Of a stretch of DNA of 64,000 nt, positions 811-43,090 are shown piece after piece. Every line of letters starts with the position of its first letter. The first letter of the stretch is position 1. The DNA is from Callorhinchus milii (lineage: Eukaryota), in NCBI RefSeq assembly GCF_018977255.1, contig NW_024704742.1, positions 434,001 through 498,000 of the forward strand, given 5' to 3'. The notes under the pieces were generated by a model. That model did no database searches. It worked only from the letters and a program-made list of their open reading frames with translations, and was not told where the DNA came from. The position numbers were made by a program, and so were the translations under genes.

Positions 811-3800
811 GTAAGTTGCAGTTCTTAAGAAAGTCCCGGGTGATGCAGATTGCTGCAGTTGAATGCCATTTTTGTTGGCAATGGTTTCCTTTTTTTCCTG
901 AAAAAGATTATGGCAATGCATTTTGCTTCCTAAAACAACAAAATCTTGGATTTATATAGCGCTCTACATGGGGGGTGGCCACTTGGACGCTTAATTAATG
1001 AAACTGGTTCAATATTTGATAATGTGGAAGGGAACGAAATTTATAAACGTTCGTTGAATCCTGAGAATAGTTTGGGATATTTAACTCTTTACTGATTGAC
1101 AATGCAGTGTTTTCACAATTGGTGAAGAAATTCTAGCTTTCTCCCAATGTCAGCCTGGCTCAGTTTGGTGAAATTAGCCCGACACAAGCGTAGAGTGGAT
1201 GAGCTGAGTATCATTACAAATCTCTTCATTACAGCACTATTTATTCACATTTAAACTGCTGTTCGTTTTGAATTAGATGGACAACGAGTGGGTTGAAAAG
1301 CCAAGGTCGATTGTCAGTGGGGAGCAACAGAGACCGAGAAATCTCAATGTCTGTTGGTTTGGGAAGGTCACAACTAGATTCCAAAGGTGGTGTGGTTGGT
1401 GGCACCATAGATGTGAACACATTGGAGATGGTTGGTAAGTTTGGTTCCTCAAATCACGTATGCCAACAAAATATATAGTCACTACACATTACAGCATATC
1501 CTGTGAAGCGCTCTGATACATCCTCCCCACGTGCAACGGTGAGATCGCTGTACACAATCTTCAACTAATTACTGGGAATAAACCTCTGTGTGTTCTGTTG
1601 CATTAATTTTCCAATTTACCCAATTTTATATTATACACGAAAAGTGTGGGATAAGCACCAAAATAAATCTTTACAAAAGGGTGTGGCATGTGTTGTGTTG
1701 GAGCGGCATTTCTGCAAGTCAGTGTGACGTATCTGCAGGATGTGACATTTAAAAATCCTTTATTATCCTGGCGCTTATTATTGTGCCTTTCCCATCGGGA
1801 GAATTCCACAATGCCCTTCATAGGATGTACTGTAAAGTGTAGTCATTCCATATTGCAGGAGAACACTTTCTTGAATACGTTTTTGGCATTTTCCATGTGA
1901 AAGTTTTTGCTATTAATCGTTCCTCACGTCCAATCATAACTCTTACTCTTTGCAGTACACATCTCGGAACACCCCAATCACCAACCCAGTCACAAAATCC
2001 AGATCACACTGGGCTCCACTGATGCTCGAGTGGATTATATGGGATCCAGTATTCTGATGGGAATTTTCAGCAATGCAGATCTTCAGCTGCAAGATGAGTG
2101 GAAAGTTCATCTTTATAATAGTGTCGACTCAAACTTGACTGAAAAAAGGTATTTAGAAATCCTATTCTCATAATCTTATTTTCATTACTTGCTACAAGAT
2201 TGAATAAATATTTCACTACTTAGATGTTTTTTTCAGTTATTTGTTGTCTGGTAAAAATATTGTATACAGTATAATTGCATTGCCATATTGTATAACGTTT
2301 ATGAATTTTACTGTAAAATATCTATTACAATATGGCCTTAAAGGAGCAGCTCTGCCATTGTCATTTTAAAGAATCGTTGTGTCTTCCTTCCTGCTACCTG
2401 ATCTTTAATTAACTGGCTACTCATCTCGTTGATATGGGATGTTCATTAATCCAGATTAATGTGAATGTGTGCCTGTATAAAAACATTCACTTTCGTTTCC
2501 AAATCTTAATTCAGACCTTTATTTTTACTGAAAGACGCAATTGCAGATGCAAATATGAAAACATTTTTGAAGAATGGTAATAAAACTTTGTTTTTCCTTG
2601 TTAAGTGATTTGTTTTCTCTTTCGCCTTCCAGCGAAATCTTTGTTCACGGAGATCTGCAATGGGACATCTTCCAGGTCATGATCTCTCGATCAACCACCC
2701 CAGATCTGATTAAAATTGGATTGAAACTGCAGGAATTTTTCACACAGCAATTTGATACCAGCAAACGAGTCCTGGCTACCTGGGGACCAGTGCTATACAT
2801 ACCCCCAAAAACACCAGTGATTAATGTGGAGCGGAGTTCCAATGAGCACTGTGAGAGTTTACACGTTACATTTTCCTTGAGAGAAATTTGCCTTGAGATG
2901 ATGGAAACTCTTGATTGATCCTTTACTTGTTTGTCTTTTTCCTTTTTCTCTCGTTCGAAGTACTGGGTGCTGCCCATCATCGCCACTGGCCAGAAGTGTT
3001 AAAGGTGATCGCTGGCTGCCACATCTCCTTGTTTCAGATACCGTTGCCTGAAGACGCAGTACAGCTGGGTGGATCTATGAGCCTGCATGGCAATCACATG
3101 ACTCTTGCCTGTTTTCACGGACCCAATTTCCGCTCAAAATCGTGGGCTTTGTTCCACCTTGAAGAGCCCAACATTGCTTTCTGGACTGAGGCTCAGAAAA
3201 TCTGGGAAGATGGTAAGTTTAATTTTAGAAACGTTTCCGAAAAGTGTTTTCAGTTGGAAAACTTATCAACCGGCAGCAAGTAAAGTGCATTCTTCACGAT
3301 TAACGTTCATGTCCTGTCGAGGCAAAGTCAAATTGGTGAAGACTGCAACATTTTCCATATCTGGGGAGAGAATTTCCAGCAGTCAGTAGAGTTCCTGACC
3401 TTACCAGTTTGCACTTAACAATGGGGGAAATCCCAACATTTCCCCTATTGTGGAGTCCTGCAGCTTTGTGGTTAGAGCACTTGCCACCCAAGCACTTCTG
3501 CTTACCAGCAGTAAGTAGGAAATGTTTGTCAGTCGATTGGCAGATTGCTTTTACGAGGGTAATTATTCCTTTAAAAAAGTTGCTCACTTCAATCCACAAC
3601 TGTTTGTGGGACGCTGCTGTGCACAATTGGCTGCTGCGTTTCGCCCACAAAATATACAATCAATTCACTTTGCAGTGTGTCTGTGAAGCGCTTTGGGACG
3701 TCCTCCCGACGTGAAAAGCGCTATATCAAATGCAAGGATTATTATTATTATATCCTGTGAAGCGCTTTGAGATGTCTCGAAGACATGATAAGGCGCTGTA

Positions 3801-6800
3801 TCAAATTCCCCTTCTTGTGAGTTTTCTTTTTAATTAATCTTACTGTCTATTGTTTCCTCATAATTTAATGCCCTTTAATCCCTCATGTTGTTGGGTGCTT
3901 CTCTGTTGTTTGTTGCATCCTTGATAGTCACTTGTTATAATGAATTCCAGACTTTCAACAAAACAAAAACAAATTACATTTGTATAGTGCCTTTCATGTC
4001 GGGAGGACGTCCAAGGCGCTAGAGTCTTCACTCAAACAAACCTTTTGAGTGAAGCCATTCCTGTGAAGCCATTTCGGATTGCTGATCACTCTTGTCTTCT
4101 AACCCATCTTAAATTTGGTACTTTTTATAGATCTGTAAATATCATTGTTTCATTTTGTTGATTTGATAGATAAGATAACACAAAGGAGTACATATTTCTG
4201 TGCTATTCATTTTTCCGCTGCTTAAAAATATTAAACAAATTGCAATAATACTTAGAAATAGAATAACTGTAATCTATTTTCAACTGTCTCCAGGGGCGAG
4301 TGACCACTCAACATACATTGTACAAACCCTGGACTTTCACTTGGGCCACAACACAATGGTTACAAAACCTGGAGGTGCCTTAGAAAGTCCAATGGCAACA
4401 ATCACCAAAATAACAAGACGTCGTCATGAAAATCCACCACATGGTGTTGCAAGTGTGCAGGAATGGTTCAACTATGTGACTGCCATGAGGAACGAAGGTA
4501 AAAAAAAATGCATGTTGTTGTTGTTATATTTTTAGCAAAACTAAAACATGAATTACCAAATATCAGAAGAGAAATGAAGCTGAGCATCAATAACTACTGT
4601 CACGACCTTTCCCCACAGAACTGAATCTTCTTCGAAACGTTGATTCTCACACTGCAGACAGTAAAACGTCTCTTAAGAGCTCCAACATGATGAGTGGGTT
4701 CCGAGGAACTGCCAGTTACAGCCATGAAACTGAGACAATCTTTGCCTTGCCAAGGATGCAGCTGGACTTTAAATCTATACACATGCAGGAACCTCAAGAA
4801 CCACTGCTGCAAGGTAGAGATCTGATTGAATTTACGAAACTTCAGCCCAGGAGGAGTCCGCTGTGTTTTGCTGTTGATGGTTTTTGCAGTGGCGCTATCT
4901 ACTGCCCTCACACTAAATCTTTATTGTTCGCAACCACAAGTCTGACATCTCGTGACCTCGGCTCCCACTATGCTCACCGTCTTACGCACTTTTATTTTTA
5001 AACGGGTTCGATTGTGAATCAAGTTTCAAAAAGTACAATCCAAAATGTGTTCCACCTCTTTTCCAGAGGGCGGTGTTTTGATATTTTTCCTCCGACCTTT
5101 CAGATCCCAACAGTAAGCCAAAGGTGGAGTGCAGTGTTGTGACCGAATTCACTGATCACATTTGTGTGACCATGGATGCTGAACTGATTATGTTCTTACA
5201 TGACCTTGTATCTGCTTATTTGAAAGAGAAAGAAAAAGGTTAGTCTTTTATTTTTTGTCAAATGTTCATTGCTAATTTTGTGACAGTTCTCACCCTTTCG
5301 GCCTCTGTTAATACTCACAGAAACTTGAGAAGTTCTTTGTTCTCTCAACATTTAATTTTTATTATTGTCTTGTCATAACTCTAGCTACAATCCACTACTG
5401 TTTGAGGGGACGCTGCTGTGCGCAATTGGCTGTTGGGTTTGGCCCACAAAACATACAGTCAATTCACTTTACAGTGTATCCTGTGAAATGCTTTATGAGA
5501 CGACCTCGAAGACCTGATAAAGCGCTGTATCAAAATCCAGGATTATTATTAACAGTGCAACAACAATCCACAATATAATTTTTCATAACACTAACCCCAA
5601 AATACATGTACCCTTGCTCTATCCAGAAGCAACCAACCACAAGGCTCCAAGGAAACTATTCTTATCCTCTCTTCAGCTCCTTCCCATTACCAGTGGACAA
5701 TCAATCTCTCATATCACCCATATGACCCCTACTAATATTTGGTGCCAAAGCAATCCTCTCGGGCGGCCAATGGCTGAGGGCCTCACTGCTTGCTCTCGCC
5801 TCTCACACTTCCTGCTGTCGCCCCTGCTACCTCTGTGCTAGCCATCCTCCCACCGTCAAAGCCCACTCTGCATCCACCGGGTTGTCGCCCCCTCCCCCTA
5901 CCCCAGTCTCCACACACGGGGAAAAGAGGGGCCGTGCGCACGTGAAGCAGAAAACAGACAATGTCTATCACAATTGTTGGTCTTTGATATGGAAATATCC
6001 AATGGGTTTTAATTTGGTGTATAGGTTCTCAGGTTAACTTATAACAGCGCTGGAAGGTTTTCATGTCCAGACACAATGCCTTTGTTGGGCTACAGATATA
6101 TTTACAGATAACACAATCCTTTTGAACATGGAAATAACATCATGGGACTGAATCATGATCTTTGGCTCCAAAACTAAAGCCAGATTTGGGCCAAGGGAAT
6201 TGTGTACTAAACTCTATTGCTTTTCAGTTTAGATATGATTAAAAATAATCAATTTAAAAGTATACTTTTAATTAATTGACTGTTTAACTGTGTTTATGAA
6301 TGTATAAAAAAACAAAAAAATTGCTTCTATTAAAAAATACCAATCCATTTGTAGCTATTTTCCCTCCTCGAGTTCTTGCCATTCGCCCCGGCCAGAAAAG
6401 TCCCATTACAGTTCACGATGACAGTTCCACAGACAAAGACAAGGAAGATGTGATCTACACAACTGTGGACTGGAGAGAGTTTGTTTGCAATACCTGGCAT
6501 CTGGAACCCACCTTAAGGTTAGCATCTAAATTCAGAATTGTCTCGTTCAATTGATCGTATGGAAACTTTGACAAACATTAACATCATTGGGAATTCTTCT
6601 CTCAAAAGATCCACATCCAAAGCTGCTTAAAGATTGTGAAGAGTGTTCAGATTTCAATAAAGGTATAGAGTAAACTGCTGATAACTCGTCAGGCCAAGGG
6701 AGAAGGACTCAGCAACTAGGTATCTGGAGTGGTGGGCTGGGTAAAGCTCCCCTAGGCCACAAGGGGGCACGGTGACTGCTGTGGGTGTTGATGTTCAGAT

Positions 6801-7939
6801 GAATGGCAGAGACCCATGTGGTGGCCTCCTAGTCTAACCTGTTATCTGAAGTAACTACTGAACTCACAAGAAATTCTGGAATGTGGCTAGTTACGTGTTA
6901 AGTGAAGTGACAAGCAAAGCGGAGGGAACCCTTACTCACACTTTGCTCGGGAAGTGGCTGGGATATTTTGACAGTGTGGAACTTAAATGGTAGTGAGAAG
7001 ATAAGCCACGACCTTGATATCAGGAGTTGACTGTATCTAGTTTTTACAAACTAGATCTTTAAGAGTTACCGTTTTTGTTAAGGCTACTTCAGTCCTCAGG
7101 AAATAAAATATCTCTTTTATATCTCCTGCCTGATAATTCTTCATTAATGTTGTGACAGATTCTTGAATGATTCTAAGGGTGTTTTATAGTCTGGAAATTT
7201 AATTTCCTCCCATCAGTTGTCTGGCACAATTGGTCGCATTCTTGCCTTTGAGTCAGAAGGTGGTAGATTCAAGCCCCATGACAGGTCTTTGGACTCAGTG
7301 TAGGCTGACCGTCCATCACTGAGCTGGGGGAGTGTTGCTGTCCTTCAGATGAGACATTAAACCAAAGTCTTGATGTTAAAGGTTCAATGGCACAATTTGA
7401 AAAGAGAAGGGAGTTTTCTCCTGGTGTCCTGGCTAACAATCCCCCACATAAAATGTGTCATTCATACCCGTTTGTAGGAAACTGATATGTGCAAATTGGC
7501 TGTTGCATTCACCTACAAAATACACAGTCACTACACTTTACTTCACATTTTGTGAAGAGCTTTGAAAGGTTGTGGTAGTGGCAACCTTTAATCCAAATGC
7601 ATAAATTATTAGGACTAACTGTAAAGGACACACTGGTTCTTGTGAACCAATTTCTAACAAAAAACTCTTTAACAGTAAAATGACCCGTTATTTGGTAATC
7701 TGTGTTTTTTTTCCAGGTTAATTTCTTGGACAGGAAGGAAGATTGACCCAGTAGGAGTGGACTACATTCTTCAAAAACTGGGCTTTCATCATGCCAGAAT
7801 CACTATTCCCAAGTGGGTCCAGCGTGGGGTCATGGATCCACTTGATAAGGTTCTCTCCGTTCTTATTAAAAAACTCGGCGTAGCACTGCAGGATGAAAAA
7901 GAGAGGAAAGGAAAGGACAAGGAAGAACATCCGAAATAG
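657..7939 (+). CDS. BLTP1: BLTP1/KIAA1109 (bridge-like lipid transfer protein 1), 3' portion: last 10 coding exons; gene starts upstream of window
   Basis: Exons 657-810, 1277-1434, 1956-2148, 2633-2850, 2961-3212, 4294-4497, 4619-4813, 5104-5238, 6355-6517 and 7717-7939 all have AG/GT boundaries and join in frame. The product ...[43 protein letters not shown]...HHRHWP...[20 protein letters not shown]...[35 protein letters not shown]...[10 protein letters not shown] matches the recalled vertebrate KIAA1109 C-terminus. Confidence 0.96.
1277..1434 (+). CDS. BLTP1: BLTP1 coding exon ([15 protein letters not shown]...LEMV)
   Basis: aattag / gtaagt boundaries; overlaps ORF 1293..1478. Confidence 0.93.
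1956..2148 (+). CDS. BLTP1: BLTP1 coding exon ([20 protein letters not shown]...DEWKVHLY...)
   Basis: tttgcag / gtattt boundaries; manual translation. Confidence 0.92.
2633..2850 (+). CDS. BLTP1: BLTP1 coding exon ([25 protein letters not shown]...)
   Basis: ttccag / gtgaga boundaries; within ORF 2574..2918. Confidence 0.92.
2961..3212 (+). CDS. BLTP1: BLTP1 coding exon ([10 protein letters not shown]...AQKIWED)
   Basis: cgaag / gtaagt boundaries; within ORF 2915..3283. Confidence 0.92.
3451..3806 (+). mobile_element. tRNA-derived SINE (long subfamily, internally deleted, duplicated tail)
   Basis: ggagtcctgcagc...gtggttagagcac head; shared body and tail; second partial tail 3752-3806. Confidence 0.75.
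4294..4497 (+). CDS. BLTP1: BLTP1 coding exon ([18 protein letters not shown]...AMRNE)
   Basis: ctccag / gtaaaa boundaries; within ORF 4200..4535. Confidence 0.92.
4619..4813 (+). CDS. BLTP1: BLTP1 coding exon (LNLLRNVD...[19 protein letters not shown]...LLQ)
   Basis: ccacag / gtagag boundaries. Confidence 0.92.
5104..5238 (+). CDS. BLTP1: BLTP1 coding exon ([44 protein letters not shown])
   Basis: tttcag / gttagt boundaries; manual translation. Confidence 0.92.
6355..6517 (+). CDS. BLTP1: BLTP1 coding exon ([16 protein letters not shown]...WHLEPTLR)
   Basis: ttgtag / gttagc boundaries; within ORF 6300..6554. Confidence 0.92.
7215..7570 (+). mobile_element. Deu-domain SINE (SacSINE1/AmnSINE1-like), degraded
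   Basis: tRNA-like head plus ccttcagatgagacattaaacc...atggcac...gtgtcctggc core. Confidence 0.7.
7717..7939 (+). CDS. BLTP1: BLTP1 terminal coding exon ([22 protein letters not shown]...EEHPK*)
   Basis: ttccag acceptor; TAG at 7937-7939. Confidence 0.94.
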
Positions 7940-10025: not shown

Positions 10026-10039
10026 GTGAGTGAGTGCCA

Positions 10040-10537: not shown

Positions 10538-10712
10538 ATGTCCGGGGATGGCGCCTGGCGTAGGGGCTCCGGGGAGCCGAGCTTCGCTCAGATTCTGAAG
10601 AAGAACATCCCTCCGAAGCCGCCGGCGCCGACGCTGAGCGTGACCTTCACCCCCCAGGCCGGGGCCGCGGAGGAGTCAGACTCCGGGGTAGCCAGAGTCA
10701 TTCAGCTTTCGG
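10538..10712 (+). CDS. ADAD1: ADAD1 coding exon 1 (MSGDGAW...[10 protein letters not shown]...IQLS)
   Basis: ATG at 10538; gtacgt donor at 10713. Confidence 0.85.
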
Positions 10713-13700
10713 GTACGTTCGGAGCGGTATGTGTCCGGCCGTTCCTTCTCACCGAGCGACCGGTTCCCGCGGCGCTCCCTTCGCTGCTTCACTGTCCCGC
10801 GTTTCAAGCTGCGCGGGCGGCCCCGATTCCGACTGAGCCAGGCAACAGCGTCCGAACGCAGCAGCTGTCCACTCTCCGAAGCTTCGTCCCTCGCATCGAT
10901 TGGGAGAAACGATCCACGACGCAGAAGCGCTCCTTCGTTTCCCGGCAGAGAAGTGGGAATAACACCGCTCCTGTAAATACATGTCCCGTTGATCTCCCCG
11001 TGAGCCACATTGGGACGGAACGGCTCGGCGTGCGAGTTGGGTGTGGAGTGGATCCCCGACCATGTTTCTCCCCTATCAGTCGCACGTGGGTGGATTTGCT
11101 GATGTGGCATCAGTTCCGGGCGATTAATTTGAGAGGATCGTGTATTTGAAGAAACCCGATCTGGATATCGTTTGACAACGGATTTTATTTCTGTACCGAG
11201 CGACTCTCTCGCTGGTTGAAACTCCGCTTGGTGTTCCCTCGTGTTGAGGGTGATGCTGTATTCTGTACCCGGGTGGGGGTCGGGGTCGGGGGGGGAGATG
11301 GCTTTATGTGGCACGGGATTGGCGTAACCTCAGAATTGACGATCAAACCCTGGCGTTTGATCCGACGCCTGATCACCTCGTCGAGACGTCTGAAAGCGCT
11401 TCACAGGAAACACTGTAAAGTGAATTGACTGGATTTTGTGGGTGAAACGTGTCAGCCGGTCGCGCACGGCAGTGTCCCCACAGTCTGCTGCCTTGCATGG
11501 TATAGTTTTCTGTTGCCTGCCTGGGTCCTGCTCCTGCAGGTTATTAGCAATCTTGGTCAATAAGTTTTCTCTGCAAGGTTGTGGGTTCAAGCCCCACGTT
11601 GGGACTTGGAATCCACGTGGTCCATACTGACACTCCACCGCAGGGCTCGGGATGTGCTGTATCGTTAAACCAAGGTCCTGCCTGTCTGCCTGTTCAGGTG
11701 GACTTTAATGATCCCCTCGGCACGATGAAAAGAGAAGGGAGTTTCTCTCTGCCGGTGTCCTGGCCAACAACCCCTCCCAAACAGAACTGATCACACACTC
11801 CATGGCTGTTCCAGCGCCTTGGGACGTCGTCCCGACATGAAAGGCGCTACGCAAATGTAATCTTGTTGTCGTCGTCGTATTTGTTGTTGTGTTGTTTGTG
11901 GAACACTGTTGTGTGCGAATTGGCTATCGCGTTCACCCACAAAATGCACGCAGTCACACCACTTCACAGTGGCCTGTGAAGCGCTTTGAGTCATCTCAAC
12001 AATGTGTTAAGGTTTGAATTCAAGGACTATCACACAGTAATTTGGTAGAATAATTTTCCTTTTAATAATGAATGACTCATCTCTCTTTTTAATAGGTCAC
12101 TTGGGTTTTGAAAATGCCGTTGAGTCTCCCTAATTGCTTTTAGCCTAGAATACTGATCTACTTATTATTATTATTAATACTGATCCAAGTTATTGTCACG
12201 GAAAGCTCTAGTCAAGTCCCCGTGTAAGCACGTCACAAAATGATGTACATTTTTTCCTTCATCCAGTTGTTTCTATTGGAGTTGGTGACTCTAGTCAGGA
12301 ACCTCCAAGAGAAACAACTAGACTGAAAAAAACCCTAAAGATTATAGTAATAAAGCTACTCTTAGTATCTGCGTGACTTTATTACTAAAATATTAGAGTC
12401 TGAGACAAAAATATTAAAACTGCATGCTCTGATTTTCCTCAGAAATTGGGGAACCTATTCTCTGTGCCTGGGCATGTGCTTTTCTTCCCCTGTAACCGGC
12501 CATATAATAATCCTTGCATTTGATATAGCACCTTGTTATCAGGTCTTCGAGACGTCTCAAAGCGCTTCACAGAATGTACTGTAAAGAGAATTGACTGTAT
12601 ATTGTATGAACATATGCTCTTCATTTTTCCACTACTGCCCTGTGCCTGTGTCACCCTTCCCCCATGCCCAACACCTTTCTTCTCCACACCCCCACCCCCC
12701 GATTGCCAGGGTAAGTCCTCCTCCCTCTTAATTTTACTTGGATTTTCTTTCTTTATTGTTATGCCATTTAGAATTGTGTATATTTTTGCAGGGCAATATC
12801 CAAAGTCGCAGTTTGTTGAAAATGCGAAACCGCTCCCGAACACTTCACTGCCTCCCAAGAAGGTGCCTCGAGAGTTTATTGATAAATGCCGTCGTGGTGA
12901 GATCAACCCTGTTTCAGCTTTGCATCAGTTCGCACAAATGCTGCGAATGCAACTCATTTTGAAAGAAACTATAGCGACAGGCGAGTGGAATTTATTTTCT
13001 CTGTCGTATATTTACCTCCTTAGAAACCCCTCTTTGTAATCCCGCCTTCGCCAAGTTCTGACACGTGCGGTAACCCACCACCGTGCTTAAGAGTATCCAA
13101 ACCAGACAGAGTTCCACATGTGAAATTTTCCCCGTGTCTGGAATGACACTCTCCCAAGAAAGATGCATTCTGCTTACCTAAGAGTATTAGATGCAGTTTG
13201 GCGAGAGCCGTGGTTTGGGAGCTCCAGAGTAGGTGTTTGGGTACTGGGGTTTAACCAGCTAAGGCTGCATAGCTTACCAGAGTGAGCGCTGTTTGGCAAG
13301 TTTCCTGCTTGCTTGTTCAGCTAAGACCACCCTACCCTTTAGGGCCTTGGCTTGCAATGTTAATGGGACCTGAGTGGAAAGAACCTCTGTCCCTAGTGAC
13401 TGATCTGCCCCTCTCAAGTCCTGCTGAAGAACCAGGCTCGTGGCTCTGTCATCGTTAGTGCCTTGGACCACTCTGGGCTCGCCTCGCAGAACAGATACAA
13501 ATAGATTATTTCTCTATTTTTCCAGGGAATGTTTTCGGACAGTATTTTGCCTTTTGTGCAGTGGTTGATGGCATTGAGTACAAAACTGGAATGGGTCAAA
13601 ATAAAAAAGAAGCAAAGGCAAATGCTGCACAGTTAGCTCTCGATGAATTGCTGGACACCGAACTGATCAAGACTCCAAGTAAGTCTTTTATTTTTTTAAA

Positions 13701-16700
13701 AAATAAAGTACTGGTTTAGTGATGAAGTACACTCCTTGCTCTCTGGCAGAATTTCTACTATTCTGTCATTAAAAACATAAACTACTCCTGTATAGGTTAA
13801 GCAGCAAGGAATCTAACTTCAAAATTAGGCTATGGTGAGCAAACAAGCATATTTTTGGGGGGATGGCAGTGCTTTTGGAATTTTTGGGGATCTCAATCCT
13901 ATCTCTGAAGAACTGAGGACATAATCTCTCTCTTGTCTACAAATCCCTTCACGCCCTGTCACCTCCCAATCTTTCAGACCCTTTGCCTCCGCTGCCTGGC
14001 TCTGGGCTCCTGCTCGTCCCGCTACACCATCGATGGACGTGCTTTCAGTTACTACACCCCAAATCTTTGGAACTCTCTCCCTCAATTCATCCGCCATGCC
14101 CCCTCCTTCCGCTCTTTTAGATCACGACTGATCCCCACCCCACCCCCACCCCCCCCCGGCTCAGCATCAGGTTGCGCCACCTTTAAGCGTTCAGACACTG
14201 CCGCACTTGGAGGGCGCTGTATAAGTAAGTTGTTGTTGCTGTTGGGATGCTTTTAAGATGATCATTTCATTGTTTCACATCAATATGTTGAACATTTAAT
14301 TTCAGTTATCGGTCCAACTCCGATCCCTGCTGAACGAAAGGTCGTTCCTGCACCAAGTCTCCCTTCAAGGAATCAACCTTCAAAGTTAGGCTATGGTGAG
14401 CAAGAAGATTTGGATTTGTTTGGCATCTCAACCCCATCTCTATGAAGAACTAAAGACATAACCCAGAAAATGGGGGGTGTAAACTCAGTAAATAATAATA
14501 ATCCTTGCATTTGATTGTACAGCCTTATCACATAAAGGCGTCTCAAAGCGCTTCACAAGTTTGTGAAGTGTAGTGAGTGCGTATTTGCGCACAGCACTGC
14601 CCCACAAAACAGCAATGAAGTGAATGACAAGTTTTATCGGGGACCTGTTGACCACAACACCAAAAGAAACTCCCTTCTCTTTCGAGTAGTGCAGATGCTT
14701 CCGATTCACGTCTCATCCTAAAATGAACCGTGTTAAATTTGTCTTGACAATTGCTACCACACAGTGTGACGACGATGATAATACTAATAATGCATCACAT
14801 TTAATGAGGTGCTTTTCATATCAGGAGAATGTCTGAAAGCACTTAAGAAAATACACTGAAGTGTAGTAACTATTTTGTGGGCGAACACGGCAGCCAATTT
14901 GCACACACCAACATACCGCAAACAGTCGTGGAGTGAATGGCTAGTTTTTATTACTGTTACTATAACCTGACTCTGAGACGAGAATGCTACCAACTGAGCT
15001 CGGCTGACGCACAGCTCATCATTTGGTCAGGTTTTTCCTTCTGGACTTTAGTTACTATAACCTTGTGTTATGTTTGCCCATTTAGCAACACTGTGGATGA
15101 ATTCGTTGATAAATAGCCATTTCTCCTTTTTAAATGTTTTGTTTTTTTTTCTTGTAGAAGGAAGGAATTCTTATTACATGGCGATTTCTGTTGCCTGTAA
15201 GGAGGTGTTCAGCAAGCTGACTGCTAACCACCAGGAACACCAAAATTGTGGGAATTCCCTGGCTGCTTTTGTAGTTGAAAAATGTGAGTAGAAAATTGCG
15301 AAAACTACATTTTTAAGATCAATGTGATCATTCAGTTATATAATGTTCTGCTCATTACTGGTAAATAAGGAGAAATCTTAGCCCTGCAATTTTCCTATAT
15401 ATTTACAAAAAAAGTTTGTATTTTCTCAAGCAAAGGAATTAGCGAAATCACTGCAATAGATTTGTGTTCTGCATCACGTATGGTGCAGTCGTCGATAGCT
15501 TCTGGCCGATAGTGGAGGCCAATTGCTCTTTACTCATTTTGCCTCAAGTGCTTTAGAAAATCAGGCTTTAAATTGCCAGGAAAATTCAAGCGACCATTTA
15601 AAATGTTTGTTTTAGTTGGACAGCCCTGTGAAGTTGTTGCAGTTGGAACTGGGGAGATAAGTTACAATGGCCCTTCTTATCCCGAAGGCCGAATAGTGCA
15701 CGATTCCCACGCTGTGGTGACTGCGAGGCGCTCACTGTTGAGGTAAAGTGTCTTCTACATTAGCAAACCAGATGAGTTTTAATGAAAAGTGTAAAAGCTG
15801 CAGTTTTTCATTTTAACGACCAGCTACAAACATTTCCAAATGTACTTTTGACTCGGTTGTTATCCATATCCCCGTACCCTGGGCCGATATAAAAGTGCGG
15901 CTGCAGTTTTGTCAAGGAAGCAAACACCAGAATCCGCGACAAACCTGCAAAAAAAAAATGAAGCTTCCTCAGCGCCCGGGCCTCTCGTGCTGCTGCCGGC
16001 TGTTTACTCCACGCACCCACTGGGATGAGTGGCTCCTCCAGACGCTCATGCCTGGTGCGCAATTTTCGGCAAACATTACCGCAATTTCCCATTGACCCCG
16101 GCCATAGCTAAGGTAGATTTCTATAACTGGAAAATCTTCCGTTATGTATTGTACCAAAGGTCCTGTTCTCAATTTGTCGCCTGCTTGCTTTGCCCACCAA
16201 CAGTGGGGGCTTGTGCTCTTGTTGGCATTGAAATTTACCAACTGTTTTGGAAGATGCCTGCTGTGCAGCGTTTCAAGCTGCGGTTCATTACTTGGGGAAA
16301 ATAAGTTATAATCTTATAATAATCATGATCTCTGTCCGGCAAGGTGTCTGGCCGAGGTAGGTGGAGTGTCAGCTTTACTATCGCTGGCGGGCGGGCACAG
16401 CACATGTGCTCTGAAGACCCACGTAACCATCTCTGAGCTGCGTTACTCTTCTACAAGACTTTGGAACCATAGAAACAACGTTAACGGGTTGTTTCATATG
16501 GTTTCTGATCTGGCATTACTTAATATGATTCCTAATGTGCAGACCAGTCTGCCAGCAATTGATGCTTGTATTTTTTAATGAGGAGTAATGGTGTCTATGC
16601 AGTTAATCCACTTTACAATATGTTGATATCAAATGTAAGAATTATTATTATATATCTGATGTGCACTTTTATACTTTCCAGGTATCTTTACAGACACCTT

Positions 16701-19035
16701 CTTATGTTTTATAACAAAAATCCTGAAGTGGTGAAGCAGTCTATTTTTTGCACCAACTCTGAAGGAAAAGTTCTTACCCTCAAGGATCGGACTAACTTTC
16801 ACCTTTATCTGAATCAACTACCAAAAGGTGCTGCTCAGATCAAACGGCTGTAAGTGGGAGTAATTCTAGGCTTTGTGTATGATACATGATGTGAAAGGAT
16901 TATTTAACTCTGGCATTAGTCCCATAACATTGTTTGGATGAGACAGCAAACCAAGGTCTCTCTGCTTTTTGAGATGCACATTAAAAACAATTACAAAATA
17001 GTCTTAACATGCTGCTATCTGAAAAGAGAAGCGAGTTTCTCGCAGTGTTACTGGTCAATAATCCCCCAGATTTATTAAAAAAAGTCATTCCTGTTAGTAG
17101 GACGTTGTGTCACCAAAAATAGTTGCTACACTTTAGAGAAAACTTTATGAAATGCTTTGAGATGTTTCGACCCAAACCCTTGATTCCTCATTAGAAATTA
17201 AATATTTTACAGTTCAGTGTTTTTGATTTAACAAAACTGTTTCCCACTGTGATAAAATAAATCAAACGTAGAATCAAGTTGCTTTAACACCGAATGTCTT
17301 TCTTTACACAGACATCTGGCCCCTCACTCAATATCTGCGTTTCACACAAATAAAGAAATGGAGCTTCATATTGTTTTGGATGGCAACGTGTACTCCGTTA
17401 GCCACTGTAGTTCTGAAGTAACTGCAACCAGAGTATGTAGTATGTCTGCCAGTGACAAACTCACCCGTTGGGAAGTACTTGGAGTCCAAGGTGCTCTTCT
17501 CAGTCATTTCATTGAACCCATCTACATCAGCAGCATCCTGATTGGTATGTGATCTAATATCTCAAGCTGTGGAAAAAAAATCATTATGTTCCCAAATATT
17601 TTATCAAACAGCCACTTGTATTTACAATAGCAGCTTTCTTGTGGAATAATGGCGACATAGAGGGTAGATCTTAAAACTAAATACTCTGCCAGGACTGTAC
17701 CTTTCAGTCTGGACTGAATGGAAATAGGAGAGGCTGTCTAATGGCGGTTTGTGATGATTGATGATTTGTGATGATTGATGATTTGTGATGATTGATGATT
17801 TGTGATGATTGATGATTTGTGATGATTGATGATTTGTGATGCTCGTTCAACACATGATTGCACTCTGGCCAATATACAACTTACAGATCTGCTCTTATCA
17901 TGTGTTTTACTTAAATATTTGTATTGAAAAATGGAATTTAAAAATACCCATTCAAAAACTTGCAAAATCACTTTGTAACTTTCATTTGATCTTCTAGGTG
18001 ATGTAAATTGCATTGACACACGAGGAATGGATATAGCGATTAAACAGCGTGTAGATGACTCACTAACTTCAAAGCTCCCTAACTTGTACATTGTCAACAA
18101 ACCTCATATTTGCCTGACAGAAGTTGCGTATCCCTCACAGGCAAATACGGTCAATAAAATGCTCAGTCTGAATTGGTCTCAGTCAGATGGTTTATTAGAA
18201 ATTGTGAATGGTGTGACTGGAAAGATTGCTGAAAGGTAAGGTGCTCTCAACATGTAATATTGTCTCACTTACCGTTGTCTTTGTATTCCATCTATTTATC
18301 CTACAATATCACTCCATTCAGAATGTGAGAATCTTCACAAGCTATCAACTGTTGACCTATTCACATCAAAATTCTGCGTAACTTCTGGACTTTGTATTCT
18401 GCTGATCATTAAATACAGTAGTTGTGGTGGATAAGTGTCCATAATGAAGTATTTTAACCTCTAGCTACACCGACCTTTATTATAATAGCAAATAATGATT
18501 CTTACGTTTGTATTAGAAGGAAATTATATAAATCCTGGGACCTGATAATTAAGACCCTTTATCACTGATACTGAAGCTATTTAATCCCTTTGCTCAGCCT
18601 TTCGGTCTTTCAGTATTGTAATTCTAAACAGATGTGTGGATGAAGTCATTATTATCCATTTCAAAAAAGCGATTTGTTTTTTGCTTTACAGTTCACCATT
18701 TAAAAGTGGCGCCTCCATGACTAGTCGTTTATGCAAAGCTGCCATGCTGAGTCGCTTCTATCTTGTTGCTAAAGAAGCGAATCGAGAAGATTTGTCCACA
18801 GTTGCAACGTATCATGTAGCAAAGGTAAAGCTCACTTCCTGCTTAACTCTACACTGAAAATGCTGCCCAATTAAAATGTCTAATCAGTTTTTAAAATGCA
18901 ATTTGTTTTCATTCCTTCCAGATGATGGCAAAATCGTATCAAGAAGGAAAAACATTGCTGAAATCATCCTTGGAACAGCATGGATTTGGTATTTGGCTAG
19001 TAAAGAATCCAAATGATGAACAGTTCCATATGTGA
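10538..19035 (+). CDS. ADAD1: ADAD1/TENR (adenosine deaminase domain-containing 1; dsRBD plus inactive ADAR-type deaminase), 11 coding exons, 581 aa
   Basis: Exons 10538-10712, 12792-12980, 13526-13678, 14306-14395, 15158-15283, 15616-15742, 16682-16849, 17312-17544, 17998-18235, 18692-18824 and 18922-19035 sum to 1746 nt in frame. Motifs [70 protein letters not shown] and SRLCKAAM match ADAD1. It lies directly downstream of KIAA1109 as in other vertebrates. Confidence 0.95.
11575..12005 (+). mobile_element. Deu-domain SINE with inserted L2-type tail
   Basis: ggttgtgggttcaagcccc head; cgttaaaccaaggtcctgcctg...cctgttcaggtggac...gtgtcctggccaaca core. Confidence 0.65.
12792..12980 (+). CDS. ADAD1: ADAD1 coding exon 2 (dsRBD start; GC donor)
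   Basis: ttgcag acceptor; AG|gcgagt donor required to keep frame. Confidence 0.9.
13050..13490 (+). repeat. Unclassified interspersed repeat (related copies at 25885-26520 +, 48630-48870 +, 57830-57905 -)
   Basis: Shared motifs ccg(t/c)gcttaagagtatccaaac, gagagcc...ggg.actcca.ag, ttaaccagct, gactg.tctgcc...aagtcctgc. Confidence 0.75.
13526..13678 (+). CDS. ADAD1: ADAD1 coding exon 3 ([15 protein letters not shown]...[10 protein letters not shown])
   Basis: ttccag / gtaagt; manual translation. Confidence 0.92.
13930..14245 (+). mobile_element. L2 LINE 3' fragment
   Basis: [19 protein letters not shown] motif; tail gagggcgctgtataagtaagttgttg. Confidence 0.75.
14306..14395 (+). CDS. ADAD1: ADAD1 coding exon 4 (IGPTPIPAE...KLGY)
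   Basis: tttcag / gtgagc; 90 nt, phase 1-1; corresponds to the mammalian GPPPFPAEP linker. Confidence 0.8.
15158..15283 (+). CDS. ADAD1: ADAD1 coding exon 5 (GRNSYY...SLAAFVVEK)
   Basis: ttgtag / gtgagt. Confidence 0.9.
15616..15742 (+). CDS. ADAD1: ADAD1 coding exon 6 (EVVAVGTG...[14 protein letters not shown])
   Basis: ttttag / gtaaag; manual translation. Confidence 0.92.
16682..16849 (+). CDS. ADAD1: ADAD1 coding exon 7 ([10 protein letters not shown]...[10 protein letters not shown])
   Basis: ttccag / gtaagt. Confidence 0.92.
17312..17544 (+). CDS. ADAD1: ADAD1 coding exon 8 (...[35 protein letters not shown])
   Basis: acacag / gtatgt. Confidence 0.92.
17748..17841. repeat. 17-bp minisatellite (TTTGTGATGATTGATGA) x ~5.5 in ADAD1 intron
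   Basis: Perfect tandem copies visible. Confidence 0.92.
17998..18235 (+). CDS. ADAD1: ADAD1 coding exon 9 (DVNCIDTRG...SLNWSQ...GKIAE)
   Basis: ttctag / gtaagg. Confidence 0.92.
18692..18824 (+). CDS. ADAD1: ADAD1 coding exon 10 ([18 protein letters not shown]...TYHVAK)
   Basis: ttacag / gtaaag. Confidence 0.92.
18922..19035 (+). CDS. ADAD1: ADAD1 terminal coding exon ([10 protein letters not shown]...[19 protein letters not shown])
   Basis: ttccag acceptor; TGA at 19033-19035. Confidence 0.92.
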   Translation: MMAKSYQEGKTLLKSSLEQHGFGIWLVKNPNDEQFHM

Positions 19036-33819: not shown

Positions 33820-34920
33820 ACAGAATAGTGCTAAAAGGATGTTTTTTTTCCCAGATAGTAGAAGGTAATTTGTGATATATCGCAAGGGTCTATGCCAGGG
33901 CCTCTCCTTTTTCCAATATATATTAATGGCCTTGACTTAGATGTAGGAGGCACAGTATCAACATTTGTAGATAATATCAAGCTGGGAAAGATATGGAATA
34001 GTGAGGAGGATGGCAAGAGACTGCTTAAACAGATTAGCACATGGGCACAGCAGATCCCACATCCCATAAACAATTGTGGATTGAGTGAATGAAATTATTA
34101 TTATTTTTGTGTGGGAGGGATTATTACTCCAAGATAGACAGTGGCAGATGAAGTTTAATGAAGCAAAATGTGAGGCGATCCATCTTGGTAACAAAAAACA
34201 CGTGAGAAGTGAATTCATATTAAATGGCAAGATCTTGCAATGAACAAAGCGACTTGGAAACACTGTGAAAAAAGCTAATGGTAGCTTTGGGGTTTATATA
34301 CAGGGGCATAGAATACAATTTAAAGCCATAATGCTAATAATAATAATGATCCTTGCATTTAATGTTGATTATCACATCACATTATCTTATCACATTGTTG
34401 AGACTTCTCGAAGAGCTTCACAGAATATACTGTAAAGTGAATTTGGTGAAACTTGGCAGCCAATTGTGCAGAGCAGTGTCCCACAAACAGTCGTGGGTTG
34501 AGTGATCAAATTATTATTATCTGTTTTAATTGTTCTTTTAAAGCGATTATTACCCCCAGAAAGCGATCTGCCAATCGACTAACAACTGGGTTCCTACTTA
34601 CTGATGAGTAAACAGACGTGTGGAGTATGGAAAGTGAGGAAACTTTTCATCGGAACAGAGAAGGTTGAGTGGGAACCTGATAGAAGTGTACAACATTATG
34701 ATGGGTTAGGACAGGGTGACTAGGGAATAGCTATTAGGGCAGTCAGTGACTAAGGGACATAGGTGTAGGATAGTCAGCAGTTCAGTGAAAGGAGAGCTTA
34801 GGGGAAAAAAATTCCCACAGAGAGTTATTGGGATGTGGAATGCTCTGCCGAGTAAGGTGGTAGAGGCAGAGTTCATGGTGGGCTTCAAGAAGTGAGTAGA
34901 CAGGTTAGGGTTAGGGGTAG
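33820..34920 (+). mobile_element. Degraded CR1 LINE fragments interrupted by SINE insertions (SINE on - at ~34345-34632)
   Basis: QGSMPGPLLFPIYINGLD...FVDNIKLG, WQMKFNEAKC, and 3' end ttcccacagagagttattgggatgtggaatgctctgcc. Confidence 0.75.
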
Positions 34921-35324: not shown

Positions 35325-35751
35325 TTTATTTGTGTTTATACCTTGAAGCAGAATACAGTTAATATTATATAAGACAGCAGCAACTGTAATAACTTAAACA
35401 AAGGTGTTGATATAAATATAGGAAATTAAATACTGTATATAGTACTTTCTTCTCGTACATTAACTGATCCTCTTGAGAAATTAATAAATATAGTCATCAC
35501 ATACCCATATACAATTAGTTTCTAAGATACAGTGTCAATTTGTTAGTTGTATAACAAAAGTGTATTCAGACTTGTTAAACTAGTCTAGTGAAGCATAGCA
35601 GCCCGTAGGGCTTACATTTAAGACCCGTTGCGATTCATTATCTTTATGAACGCAAAACAATAAATTAAGTATTTAAATATTTCAACGTGAAACTAATTTG
35701 AGATTCGACTACAGCCGTGCATAAATTATATTTTACTTTGTTCCATTAACA
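35325..35751 (-). promoter_or_regulatory. IL2 3'UTR with AU-rich elements and polyA signal
   Basis: At least six ATTTA pentamers on - strand (plus-strand TAAAT at 35413, 35427, 35485, 35661, 35674, 35722); AATAAA at 35330-35325. Confidence 0.75.
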
Positions 35752-35892
35752 CTAAACATATGGTTTGCTTTTCATTCCCGTGCTGCTCACATGTTTCTGT
35801 GCTGTTTTGTAGTTTCTCTGTAAGAACACCTTCAGTGCCAGCAAGAATTCAGGGATCTTCTTCTGTTTGAATTCACACCTTTGGCTTCCTTC
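35752..35892 (-). CDS. IL2: IL2 exon 4 (CD loop + helix D + C-terminal tail), 46 codons + TAG
   Basis: attttacag acceptor; TAG at 35754-35752. Confidence 0.88.
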   Translation of the reverse strand, partial: EGSQRCEFKQKKIPEFLLALKVFLQRNYKTAQKHVSSTGMKSKPYV

Positions 35893-38052
35893 CTGTAAAA
35901 TACAACACCTGTTATACTTTGTTTATAGGGGGGTTGATACCCTTATAGTACATAAGGTGACCCTGTGCTTTGCCACCTGATGTTAATGTTATTTGTGGGT
36001 GGGGGGGTCGGGGAGATTTTTAAGTGGACAAATTTCTATGTTCAAGAAGGTTAAATGTATTAATAAGCTGGTCAATGCATATTCATAAAGACTTGGATCT
36101 TAGTTGAAATCAGATACTGTCTTTGAAGAGCAGTACAGTACTATATTTGTGGGTGCAATCTATGTTGCAGTATGAAACCCAAAGCTTTTGCACTTACCAC
36201 TGTCTGGAATGTTTTCATGTTTGAGATTATGATGCTTGCAGGCTTTTTGCAGCTTGGAAGTTTGCATTTATGCTTTAAAGTTGTAAGTCCTTCCTCAAAG
36301 CAAATCAGCGAACAGTTGGGCTAGAGAAGAAAAAAAATAACAAAGTTAGATGACATATTCTGCAGAATAATGACAGCTGCAAACATTTTCAAGGAATTCA
36401 TTTTATTAAAATTTGGTATATACTTCAAATAATACATTTTACTTTGTTTAATCATTGGGAATATAGAAATTATTTTGCAATTTTGAGGTCTACTCTTATC
36501 GCTTCCTAAACCAGTTTCAGAAAACGTTTAAACCCAAATATCTAAATTGAGAGATTTAAATTTAAACGCACCTCTGTTTACCGAGAAGTGAGTAGGAACC
36601 CAGTTGTCAGTCCATTGGCAGATCGCTATCTGGGAGTACTAATCCCTCCCCCACAAAAATAATAATAATTTCATCCCTCAATCCACAATTGTTTGTGGGA
36701 CGTGGGATCTGCTGTGCGCAATTGGCTGTGCTTTCGCCCACAAAATACAATCCACCTTTACAGTATATTCTGTTAAGCGCCTTGAGACGTCTCAACGGCA
36801 CGATAAGGCATTATATCAAATGCACGGATCATTTTTATATCGCAATGTAACATTACGGAACAAGTTCAAGCACAGGATGTTTAACTATTAATGTTCTAAA
36901 ATTATACTATACACTTGGACTAAAATGCAAAATGTGATTTCCTAAAGAGTCGTCTCTTAGGAGATAATCACAGCCTAGGCTGACACTCCAGTATAGTACT
37001 GGAAAATATTGTTGGAGATATAGGTTACCGTGACAGGAATTTCCAACCCCTTTTCTTTCTAAATTATCCTGTTTGGGCCAGATAAATAATTGCACCTGAT
37101 TGTTTTGCAATTTTCTAATACATTATGGAATTGCTTTCTTTTGCAATATTCAGTCATTCATATAGTCGTACCCTATACAATGCATCTTCACACTCCTAAG
37201 GAATATTTCACCAAGTTTTGCTTCTCTTTATAAGTAATCATAATCCTTGCATTTGACTTAGCGCCTTATCACATCATCGAGACATCTCAAAGCGTTTCCC
37301 ACGATCGACTGTAAAAATGTTATGACTGGGTGCGTTTTGTAGATGAGTGCATCAGCCAAGTTGCACACAAACAGCTTACAAACTGCCATGGACTTTCGTT
37401 TGAGAGAAACTCCCTTCTCTTTCGAATAATGCCATAGAATCTTTAGCGTTCGCCTGAACAGGCAAACAGGACCTCAGTTTAACGTCCCCTCCGAATGACG
37501 GCAACTCTGCCAGTGCAGCAAACCCCAGGAGTGTCAGCACAGATTATATGAGTTCCAAGTCCCGAACCTACAACCTTCTGACTCAGAGGCAAGTGCTACC
37601 AACTGTGCAAGGTTTGACGCACTTTATATAATACTGTGAGATAAGACTATGAGTTCAGTTGTTTTTAAATCCTGCTGACACTAATGTTTTTTTTAACTGG
37701 AAGAGTAATTCTAAAATAGTGCTAAAAACGTTCAAATAGATGCTTACCTCCAGGATCACAGGAGTGCGTATTAAGTCTTGCGAATTCATGAGATATTGAT
37801 CGTTCTGGAATAAAACAAAGTGATTCATTGTTAGTAGGTGCAAAAAATAAATCTGTAGCAGTAAATATATCTTAACGTACGTATTTACATATGTCAAGAT
37901 AAGCTTAAAACCCCTCTTACCTTCAGAAGTGTTTGTAGCTCCTTGGTCTTCAAGATCATTTCACGAAGCAAATATTTAAATTTGGTACCATCGTCACCTA
38001 TCGCTGTGGTGAACGTCAGCACAGTGAAGAATAAGCACAGTAACTTAGGCAT
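35752..38052 (-). CDS. IL2: Interleukin-2 (IL-2/15/21 family short-chain four-helix cytokine), 4 exons, 150 aa precursor
   Basis: Exons 38052-37921, 37804-37748, 36320-36198 and 35892-35752 have canonical GT-AG introns, all phase 0. Protein: MPKLLCLFFTVLTFTTAIGDDGTKFKYLLREMILKTKELQTLLK/NDQYLMNSQDLIRTPVILE/PNCSLICFEEGLTTLKHKCKLPSCKKPASIIISNMKTFQTV/EGSQRCEFKQKKIPEFLLALKVFLQRNYKTAQKHVSSTGMKSKPYV*. It has a signal peptide and the motifs LICFEEGL, IISNM and CE...EFL...FLQ. It lies tail-to-tail with ADAD1 and has an IL2-type promoter and AU-rich 3'UTR. Confidence 0.85.
36198..36320 (-). CDS. IL2: IL2 exon 3 (helices B and C), 41 codons
   Basis: ttttcttctctag acceptor; GTG|gtaagt donor. Confidence 0.88.
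36570..36830 (+). mobile_element. 5'-truncated SINE in IL2 intron 2
   Basis: Long-subfamily body and tail. Confidence 0.75.
37240..37620 (-). mobile_element. Deu-domain SINE in IL2 intron 2
   Basis: cctgaacaggc...ggacctcagtttaacgtc...tccgaa.gacggca...caaccttctgactcagaggc. Confidence 0.78.
37748..37804 (-). CDS. IL2: IL2 exon 2 (AB loop), 19 codons
   Basis: ttttattccag acceptor; GAG|gtaagc donor. Confidence 0.88.
37921..38052 (-). CDS. IL2: IL2 exon 1 (signal peptide + helix A), 44 codons
   Basis: aatcATG start; AAG|gtaaga donor. Confidence 0.88.
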
Positions 38053-38109: not shown

Positions 38110-38360
38110 AAGGGATTTTATACCCTTTGTGGAGGTAGGGGGGAAATCGTAGGAGTTTTAATAGTCATTAATTTAGCAACCTGTGTCTCTCGTGAAGGAT
38201 GAATATTTTCCTCTTTGATGACTATTTTGGAAATTTTTCAAATTTGGCAATTCTAAACTTCATGATGGTAAAATCCCTTTGCTCAAACCTGCGTGTAAAC
38301 CACCAAAACCAATGGAGGTTGTGCTTATGATGCATGCCTACAATTTTCCTTCCTTTGAGA
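38110..38360 (-). promoter_or_regulatory. IL2 proximal promoter: TATA, NFAT, AP-1-like, CD28RE-like, NF-kB, distal NFAT
   Basis: On - strand: TATAAAA 38122-38116; AGAGGAAAA 38214-38206; ATAGTCA 38225-38219; GAAAAATTTCC 38239-38229; GGGATTTTACC 38277-38267; GGAAGGAAAATTG ~38353-38341. Confidence 0.8.
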
Positions 38361-38510: not shown

Positions 38511-38821
38511 GGAGTCCTGTAGCTCAGTGGTTAGAGCACTCGCTTTGCAAACGAGAGACCTGAGTTCAATTCCAGGCAGAGGGCGAAACCTTGGGCAAGT
38601 TTCCTTACTCCACACAGAGCCTAATAATAATCCCTATCATTAAAACAAAACAATAATAAATTGGTCATTTTCAATCCACGACTGTTTGTGGGACATTGCT
38701 GTGCGCAATTGGCTGCCGCGTTCACCCACAAATATACAGTCAATTCACTTTACAGTGTGTTCTGTGAAGCGTTTTGGGACGTCCTCCCGACGTGAAAAGC
38801 GCTATATCAAATGCAAGGATT

Positions 38822-42767: not shown

Positions 42768-43090
42768 ATAATAATAGCAATAATCCTTGCATTTGATATA
42801 GCGCTTTTCACATCTTCTCGACGTCTCAAAGTGCTTCACAGAATAGACTGGAAAGTGAATTGACTGTAAATTTGTGGGCGAACGCGGCAGCCAATTGCAC
42901 ACAGCAATGTCCCACACACAGCCGTGGATTGAAAATGACCAATTTATTATTGTTTGTGGTTTTGGAGGGATTATTATTAGGCTCTGTGTGGAGTGAGGAA
43001 ACTTGCCCAAGGTTTCGCCCTCTGCCTGGAATTGAACTCAGGTCTCTCACTTGCAAAGCGAGTGCTCTAATCACTGAGCTACAGGACTCC
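42768..43090 (-). mobile_element. Young full-length SINE (short subfamily)
   Basis: Reverse complement near-identical to 9355 and 38511. Confidence 0.9.

Follow-up and report, generated by a model that had tools for sequence, protein, structure and literature searches.

A four-exon gene beside ADAD1 in the elephant shark (Callorhinchus milii) is probably interleukin-2 and is flanked by IL-2-like control motifs

The locus described here is a stretch of 64,000 nucleotides (nt) from the elephant shark, Callorhinchus milii (NCBI RefSeq assembly GCF_018977255.1, contig NW_024704742.1, positions 434,001 to 498,000 of the forward strand), which at its full length is called the window and in which positions are counted from the first letter. 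It holds, in this order, BLTP1 on the plus strand, ADAD1 on the plus strand, a spacer of ~16 kb that bears long interspersed nuclear element (LINE) sequences, and on the minus strand, tail-to-tail with ADAD1, a small cytokine gene with four coding exons that is our candidate for interleukin-2 (IL-2). A preliminary description, made from the letters of this DNA alone, had proposed four minus-strand exons of 132, 57, 123, and 141 nt with GT-AG splice sites and phase 0 introns, and recomputation from the coordinates reproduced this exactly. From the TATA box to the poly(A) signal, the gene is composed as follows (X10 is a sequencing run that is introduced below).

38116..38122, minus strand: TATAAAA box, 64 nt 5' of the ATG
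37921..38052, minus strand: coding exon 1, 132 nt, with the ATG at 38052 (A at -3), the signal peptide, and predicted helix A; donor GTAAGA at 37920
37748..37804, minus strand: coding exon 2, 57 nt, with acceptor ttccAG and donor GTAAGC; judging from bin depth, its final 23 nt lie under the X10 contig
36488..37675, minus strand: repeat core of intron 2, with elements resembling short interspersed nuclear elements (SINEs) and a summed contig depth of thousands to ~170,000
36198..36320, minus strand: coding exon 3, 123 nt, carrying four mature cysteines (of five) and, behind Cys70, two acidic residues; the whole exon lies within X10 contig record 1
35752..35892, minus strand: coding exon 4, 141 nt including the TAG, with Cys110, predicted helix D, and a basic C-terminal tail
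35325..35751, minus strand: 3' untranslated region (3'UTR) with seven ATTTA motifs, two of them as TATTTAT, and AATAAA at 35330-35325

All four exon lengths are divisible by three, so that the three introns are all in phase 0, and the candidate has the four coding exons and uniform intron phase that characterize an IL-2 gene. Joined by their coordinates, the exons make up an open frame of 453 nt with 150 codons and a terminal stop, which bears out the uninterrupted product of 150 amino acids (aa) proposed earlier. The donors are, in order, GTAAGA, GTAAGC, and GTAAGT, and the acceptors ...ttttattccAG, ...ttttttcttctctAG, and ...tgtattttacAG, each a pyrimidine-rich tract followed by AG, so that all six splice sites agree with the consensus. 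Because no exon exceeds 47 codons, the gene is absent from the list of stop-to-stop open reading frames (ORFs), where its exons fall in ordinary frames of 56, 59, 87, and 101 aa; it had been described as invisible to such a list, and it is.

The product begins with a hydrophobic leader, in agreement with the signal peptide noted before, and when the -3/-1 rule is read by eye, cleavage would likely occur after A-I-G, at residue 19. The predicted mature product has 131 aa, a mass of ~15.2 kDa, and an isoelectric point of 9.6, with five cysteines (residues 66, 70, 82, 87, and 110) and a single N-x-S sequon at residue 65. Putative receptor-contact residues are E38 (acidic, helix A), N97 (helix C), and Q129 (helix D), and C70 and C110 are candidates for the conserved disulfide. 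In what we take to be the human IL-2 sequence, the counterparts of the three contacts are D20, N88, and Q126, respectively, and the disulfide is C58-C105, and the distances of these residues to the exon borders are presumably similar in the two proteins.

To follow the gene into transcripts, sequencing runs from the same organism were consulted. Eight of these overlap the window, none of which is recorded as RNA, and the four that were compared (X10, X11, X14, and X15) were taken to be RNA by guess. Record 1 of the X10 contigs is a minus-strand contig of 257 nt with a depth of 4.22. Its positions 24-147 correspond to 36320..36197 and its positions 148-249 to 35891..35790, with no letters in between; the one-base offset of this joint from the exon borders is a G common to both sides, and the junction of exon 3 and exon 4 is exact. 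The chain of four exons is more than a product of chance, since the contig joins these two segments. The bin depths of X10 (0.21, 4.13, 3.96, and 1.32) fit this single contig to the base, and the depth of 0.98 in the bin 37676-37774 equals 23 x 4.22 / 99. The first 23 letters of the contig are therefore the 3' end of exon 2, which gives the junction of exon 2 and exon 3, a junction that we infer from depth arithmetic and not from a listed alignment. The spliced transcript that had been anticipated was accordingly found in part, with the exon 3/4 junction exact and the exon 2/3 junction derived, in a run guessed to be RNA, and with the exon 1/2 junction left uncovered. The cytokine exons are not covered in X11, X14, or X15.

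The core of intron 2 (36488-37675) showed many matches of 90-95%, joints, and loose ends in all four runs compared. It is made up of highly abundant, transcribed dispersed repeat families, and part of it looks tRNA-like by eye, below the Rfam threshold.

Upstream of the coding region, the minus strand carries a series of motifs known from mammalian IL-2 promoters.

38205..38217, minus strand: purine box resembling an NFAT core, CAAAGAGGAAAAT, identical at 13 of 13 positions to the core of the mouse IL-2 NFAT/AP-1 probe (PMC3167847) and abutting the next element
38216..38242, minus strand: composite resembling the CD28 response element (CD28RE) plus AP-1 (NF-IL-2B), the best match in the window to the mammalian IL-2 CD28RR probe
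38267..38278, minus strand: NF-kB-like site AGGGATTTTACC, 25 nt 5' of the composite and on the same strand, with 11 of 12 positions matching the string that we take to be the IL-2 kB site
38330..38352, minus strand: possible distal NFAT-like GGAAAA element, picked by eye and weak, since it falls outside the top 8 for the ARRE-2 and mouse NFAT/AP-1 probes

The composite was located with a 26-mer, the CD28RR probe of PMC3167847, which was slid over both strands in 3196 overlapping frames of 100 nt by local alignment. It scored 16 at 38242-38216 versus 12 at the next best site, with a mean of 6.6 and a standard deviation of 1.4. The composite lies ~100-120 nt 5' of the TATA box on the strand of the cytokine gene, and the match owes its force to this place. 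A similar probe from the mouse Il2 locus, named CD28 RE, appears in PMC12043515, where the composite of CD28RE and the NF-IL-2B AP-1 site is also cited. The other motifs count for less by themselves. The 13/13 NFAT-core score is tied at several sites in the window (nine scan entries) and is weak alone, and an 11/12 match to the kB string was reached in 105 of 200 shuffles, which makes it common by chance and insignificant alone, so that only its place is notable. The 12-letter kB string was assumed by us to represent the IL-2 site; it occurs in PMC5811468 only within an unrelated table of predicted kB sites. With the distal NFAT/AP-1 (ARRE-2) probes, the cytokine promoter was not the unique best site in the window. 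The elements of an activation-type promoter, namely a TATA box, CD28RE/AP-1, NFAT, and NF-kB, are thus all present at the level of motifs. As a separate observation, one tRNA-like copy borders the candidate promoter, ~400 bp 5' of the TATA box.

At the other end of the gene, seven ATTTA motifs in 452 nt make up the most ATTTA-dense stretch of the window, and only 0.08% of 2542 windows of the same size, taken from both strands, reach this number. Clusters of ATTTA in AU-rich 3'UTRs are a signature of unstable cytokine mRNAs, and the 3'UTR of the candidate is of this AU-rich type.

The position of the gene was assessed from its neighbours, for which the 224 stop-to-stop frames of at least 70 aa in the window (120 + 104) and three exon peptides were scanned against Pfam.

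1940..7936, plus strand: last exons of BLTP1 (KIAA1109), with seven ORFs matching Pfam BLTP1_C at profile positions 1407-1938 of 1938
10538..19032, plus strand: ADAD1, found by tblastn with the C. milii ADAD1 protein P0006 in 11 pieces that span residues 1-581, with the Pfam domains dsrm and A_deamin

Among the 120 ORFs, dsrm was matched in one frame and A_deamin in five, together spanning 13459-18854(+). The preliminary description had guessed at a cartilaginous fish, which the species confirms: an ADAD1 exon of 67 aa (17343-17543, plus strand), searched against a collection of 5.8 billion proteins, is 100% identical to two Callorhinchus milii ADAD1 entries, followed by matches of 91% in Pristiophorus and Heptranchias, 82-90% in other elasmobranchs, and at most 69% in tetrapods among the matches listed, with 270 of 287 candidates at E<=0.001. 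The arrangement BLTP1/KIAA1109-ADAD1-IL2 is the one that we take to exist at human 4q27. According to PMC6070626, Adad1 and IL21 as flanks of IL2 are conserved across the vertebrates compared, and a 2022 review (PMC9465101) states that IL2 and IL21 co-localize from cartilaginous fish to humans. Of the KIAA1109-ADAD1-IL2-IL21 block proposed at the outset, the window bears out BLTP1(+), ADAD1(+), and the candidate(-); no IL21 was found in the 26 kb upstream of the candidate that the window contains.

The candidate is a real gene, and we consider, with a probability of about 80%, that it is the IL-2 gene of the elephant shark. Its IL-2 orthology is well supported by context, that is by synteny, splicing, promoter, and 3'UTR, and the product is most probably a secreted protein of ~131 residues that belongs to the IL-2/15/15L group of short-chain cytokines. 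A number of results weigh against this interpretation and are taken together here, beginning with the sequence searches. These used single exon peptides (P0001, P0002, and P0003) of only 41-46 residues from a fast-evolving protein, for which blanks are weak evidence. None of the three matched a Pfam family at E<=0.01, and when the threshold was relaxed to E<=10 and the enclosing frames were included, none of the six pieces matched a cytokine family. In the PDB, the three peptides gave zero, two, and one matches, which were designed repeat proteins and a GLI zinc finger and no cytokine. In the 5.8-billion-protein collection, the exon 3 peptide had no candidates and the exon 4 peptide two, neither of which scored. 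Since peptides of this length drew blanks, the residue equivalences to human IL-2 remain comparisons with a sequence that we have assumed.

The remaining points of this kind concern the transcript, the promoter, the locus, the fold, and the phylogeny. X10 gives no cover of exon 1 and the exon 1/2 junction, its contig is of low depth, the RNA nature of the run is a guess, and a processed DNA copy is possible. The CD28RR score of 16 was reached somewhere in the 64 kb by 8 of 200 dinucleotide-preserving shuffles, which makes it a modest result, and the promoter motif tests were picked after sight of the sequence, so that they offer corroboration and not proof. Only a single flank of the synteny block, the BLTP1/ADAD1 side, is observed in the window, and IL21 was not found at 38-64 kb by tblastn with the spliced product or by motif patterns. 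The four amphipathic segments that had been claimed did not emerge from a crude hydrophobic-moment count, itself a weak test, which gave two segments against a mean of 1.95 in 2000 shuffles (P=0.64). Finally, published trees are weak for elephant shark IL-2, with an ultrafast bootstrap of 61 (PMC6238376).

Several further searches yielded matches or blanks that we set aside. The sole Pfam match of the exon peptides and their frames, to DUF2198, was judged spurious. In a library of 1.84 billion proteins, the exon 3 peptide had one match, P0004, a protein of 646 aa aligned in five stretches at 34% identity (E=1.6e-5), which we assumed to be spurious and to stem from a repeat protein rich in cysteine and lysine, not from a relative. 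A stretch of 12 residues from exon 3 was found in no searchable paper. Within the window, a paralogue search by tblastn with the spliced product returned only the gene itself, the best other match having E=0.30 at 57017-57199(+), and a splice-aware exon scan of 50-64 kb gave nothing usable. An IL-21-like motif at 61137-61099(-) was rejected, as it sits within a tRNA-derived SINE.

The alternative that survives best, and that we still regard as unlikely, is that the gene, although of the IL-2/15/21 group and at the IL-2 locus, is no one-to-one orthologue of tetrapod IL-2 and would instead be an IL-21 orthologue, a lineage-specific IL-2-like paralogue of the kind of teleost IL-2L, or the descendant of an undivided IL-2/IL-21 precursor. 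The alias "IL-2-like" used in the literature and the low bootstrap value fit such a relationship, the exon-peptide searches have no power to assign a subfamily, and with IL21 not found in the window, two separate genes are not demonstrable there. However, the review mentioned above places IL2 and IL21 together in cartilaginous fish, and the candidate has a promoter with a CD28RE/AP-1 composite as described for Il2. It also adjoins ADAD1 directly and tail-to-tail, which we take to be the position of human IL2. An IL-21 label was rejected on gene structure, since the four exons end in a stop that is followed by a UTR rich in AU-rich elements (AREs) and by AATAAA, whereas IL21 presumably has five coding exons. 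An IL-15 or IL-15L label was likewise rejected: the gene adjoins ADAD1, and a TATA box and IL-2-type promoter lie directly 5' of the ATG exon. IL-15 genes have extra upstream leader exons. For IL-15 and IL-15L of the elephant shark, PMC7658486 gives transcripts of their own, JW878023 and KA353649.

A transcribed but non-functional relic, be it a pseudogene (decaying or unprocessed) or a gene with a product that has ceased to act as a cytokine, is very improbable in our view. The mature protein does have an odd number of cysteines and a basic tail of 20 residues that human IL-2, as we take it to be, lacks, and the product is absent from the annotation in the protein collection. The very low transcript cover, one contig of depth 4.2 in one of the four runs, may also be read this way, but low steady-state expression of IL-2 is expected in the absence of stimulation, and decay is hard to reconcile with a 150-codon frame that is intact over four exons, with six consensus splice sites, and with an intact TATA box, ATG context, poly(A) signal, and ARE cluster. 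That there is no gene at all, and that short open frames without database homologues were chained by chance through GT and AG dinucleotides, is hardly credible given a contig in which exons 3 and 4 are joined to the letter (and, by depth arithmetic, exons 2 and 3 as well), promoter, TATA, ARE, and poly(A) features in the expected places, and a fitting synteny.

If the gene is elephant shark IL-2, a mode of action can be proposed in which NFAT, AP-1, and Rel/NF-kB, the last through CD28 co-stimulation, would bind the proximal promoter of ~200 bp in activated T cells and switch the gene on, while the ATTTA-rich 3'UTR would keep its mRNA short-lived. The secreted product would then act on IL-2R-beta and the common gamma chain, with STAT5 as the target of the signal. 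Its alpha receptor would probably be a sushi chain resembling IL-15R-alpha, because cartilaginous fish have no known IL-2R-alpha (PMC6238376). A four-helix fold and receptor binding are what we infer for the product, and the receptor usage, cell type, and inducibility given here are likewise expectations drawn from the likeness to IL-2.

The identification itself is already known, which reduces the novelty that the preliminary description had attached to it. In 2014, Dijkstra (Nature 511:E7-9) predicted an IL-2 of the elephant shark, with the alias IL-2-like, from genome AAVX02000000, as cited in PMC7658486 and PMC6238376. This IL-2 has since entered the trees of Redmond et al. 2018 (PMC6238376) and Fig. 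3A of Yamaguchi et al. 2020 (PMC7658486). The candidate is very probably this same gene, which is from the same species, carries the same gene name, and is expected at the IL-2 locus. Redmond et al. state that Dijkstra had named putative elephant shark orthologues of both IL-2 and IL-21, and that IL-2 was not found in their data from catshark, blue shark, dogfish, and whale shark. The main text of the elephant shark genome paper has no mention of IL-2, and the supplements of PMC4690019 and PMC7658486 hold nothing on shark IL-2.

The gene nevertheless appears to lack a protein annotation still. Its product is absent from the protein collections searched, whereas the NCBI ADAD1 of C. milii, encoded on a contig of 139 Mb, is present there, in line with the view that annotation had missed this cytokine. 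The 2014 genome paper has been taken to mean that cartilaginous fish lack IL-2 and other cytokines of helper and regulatory T cells. The opposite was argued in the reply of Dijkstra and in subsequent studies, but trees supported it weakly and an IL-2 from elasmobranchs was lacking (PMC6238376). The window gives this reply independent support at the sequence level, in the form of an intact spliced gene in the IL-2 slot beside ADAD1 with IL-2-like control elements, and annotation pipelines continue to miss the gene.

What may be new is the layout of CD28RE/AP-1, NFAT, and NF-kB motifs in a chimaera. No paper on the IL-2 promoter of the elephant shark was found in the searched literature, which left subscription journals and the 2014 note outside the search, and promoter, ARE, and spliced-contig evidence for the gene was not found there either. 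Tentatively, and at somewhat less than even odds, we suggest that the grammar of the IL-2 promoter (NF-kB-like site, CD28RE-AP-1, abutting NFAT box, and TATA box) is conserved between chimaeras and mammals in order and spacing; for the human promoter, the order and spacing used in this comparison are those that we presume. If this is true, the circuit from the T-cell receptor and CD28 through NFAT, AP-1, and Rel to IL-2 would have been present in the last ancestor shared by jawed vertebrates, which lived ~450 million years ago. The candidate promoter of ~200 bp would allow a direct test of the age of CD28/Rel-dependent IL-2 control. According to PMC12043515, the Rel homology regions of elephant shark Rel and RelA have been cloned and tested by electrophoretic mobility shift assay, and Rel/RelA from several species were combined with the mammalian CD28 RE probe.

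Elsewhere in the window, some features were noted for their own sake. The spacer between ADAD1 and the cytokine gene holds RVT_1 fragments at 29595-29981(-), with E=1e-17, and at 33862-34089(+), below the Pfam cut-off, which are decayed LINE copies. At 8700-13000, an unusual number of long open frames pile up in several frames of both strands, among them 10034-11146(+) of 371 aa and 9940-10587(-) of 216 aa. None of these frames matches Pfam, and the pile encloses ADAD1 exon 1 (10538-10720); it may be a stop-poor island, GC-rich or of low complexity, at the ADAD1 5' end. Residues 54-126 of ADAD1 align to 12776-13000(+) at 89% and are again included in a 53% match of residues 54-172 at 13312-13677(+), which could be a duplicated or alternative exon with the dsRNA-binding region, or an alignment that runs on through an intron.

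ARAGORN called a tRNA-Glu(TTC) of 86 nt within ADAD1 at 16240-16325(+), unconfirmed at the Rfam gathering score; the call is probably false, or it marks the degraded head of a SINE. Rfam itself gave six tRNA matches of 37-64 bits, at 9361-9423(+), 20908-20972(-), 38517-38579(+), 43022-43084(-), 61073-61143(+), and 62709-62781(-), three of which are tRNA-Ala by ARAGORN. The copies at 38.5 kb and 61.1 kb have a longer, near-identical flank in common, and we therefore regard most of the six as the heads of SINEs from one family derived from tRNA-Ala. The 64-bit copy, at 62709-62781(-), could instead be a true tRNA-Ala(CGC) gene. A fragment of 109 nt at 45820-45928(+) resembles large subunit rRNA (eukaryotic positions 2875-2984, 75 bits, E=9e-16), has no rDNA nearby, and may be an rRNA-derived insertion or repeat.

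Among known systems, mammalian IL2 resembles the candidate in architecture. Like human IL2, it has four phase 0 coding exons of similar sizes, 132/57/123/141 versus what we take to be 147/60/144/111 nt in human, and it lies tail-to-tail with ADAD1, downstream of BLTP1/KIAA1109. As in mammalian IL2, the promoter combines a TATA box, a CD28RE/AP-1 composite, and sites that resemble those for NF-kB and NFAT, and the 3'UTR is AU-rich. Judged against the human protein as we assume it to be, the candidate also matches in having a cysteine near the start of each of exons 3 and 4, the former with acidic residues behind it, and in the glutamine that closes helix D. The differences are five mature cysteines instead of the three presumed in human IL-2, a shorter exon 3, a basic C-terminal extension of 20 residues, and the lack of any similarity detectable at the exon level in Pfam and the PDB. 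The mode of alpha-receptor binding probably differs from that of mammals as well, as cartilaginous fish are without a known IL-2R-alpha.

IL-15, IL-15L, and IL-21 belong to the same gamma-chain short-chain group, and according to Dijkstra et al. 2013, four exons are the consensus of IL-15 and IL-15L. The same source maps IL-15L between PLEKHG2 and SUPT5H and not beside ADAD1, and states that IL-21 binds no sushi receptor. A further difference from the candidate, by the gene structure that we presume for IL-21, is a fifth coding exon.

Teleost and chicken IL-2 offer a parallel in how the gene is recognized. The candidate has its cysteines at 66, 70, 82, 87, and 110. In PMC6070626, which numbers the cysteines C1-C8, those beyond the mammalian pair are the norm of the family outside mammals, and Dijkstra et al. 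2013 describe an additional pair of cysteines and a shorter exon 2 as the family consensus, lost in mammalian IL-2. Their text also gives chicken as the precedent for naming an IL-2 by promoter, exon structure, and synteny. Like the candidate, the IL-2 genes of teleosts and chicken were identified by locus, exon/intron structure, and promoter, their sequences being too diverged (Bird et al. 2005; Kaiser & Mariani 1999, as cited in Dijkstra et al. 2013 and PMC6070626).

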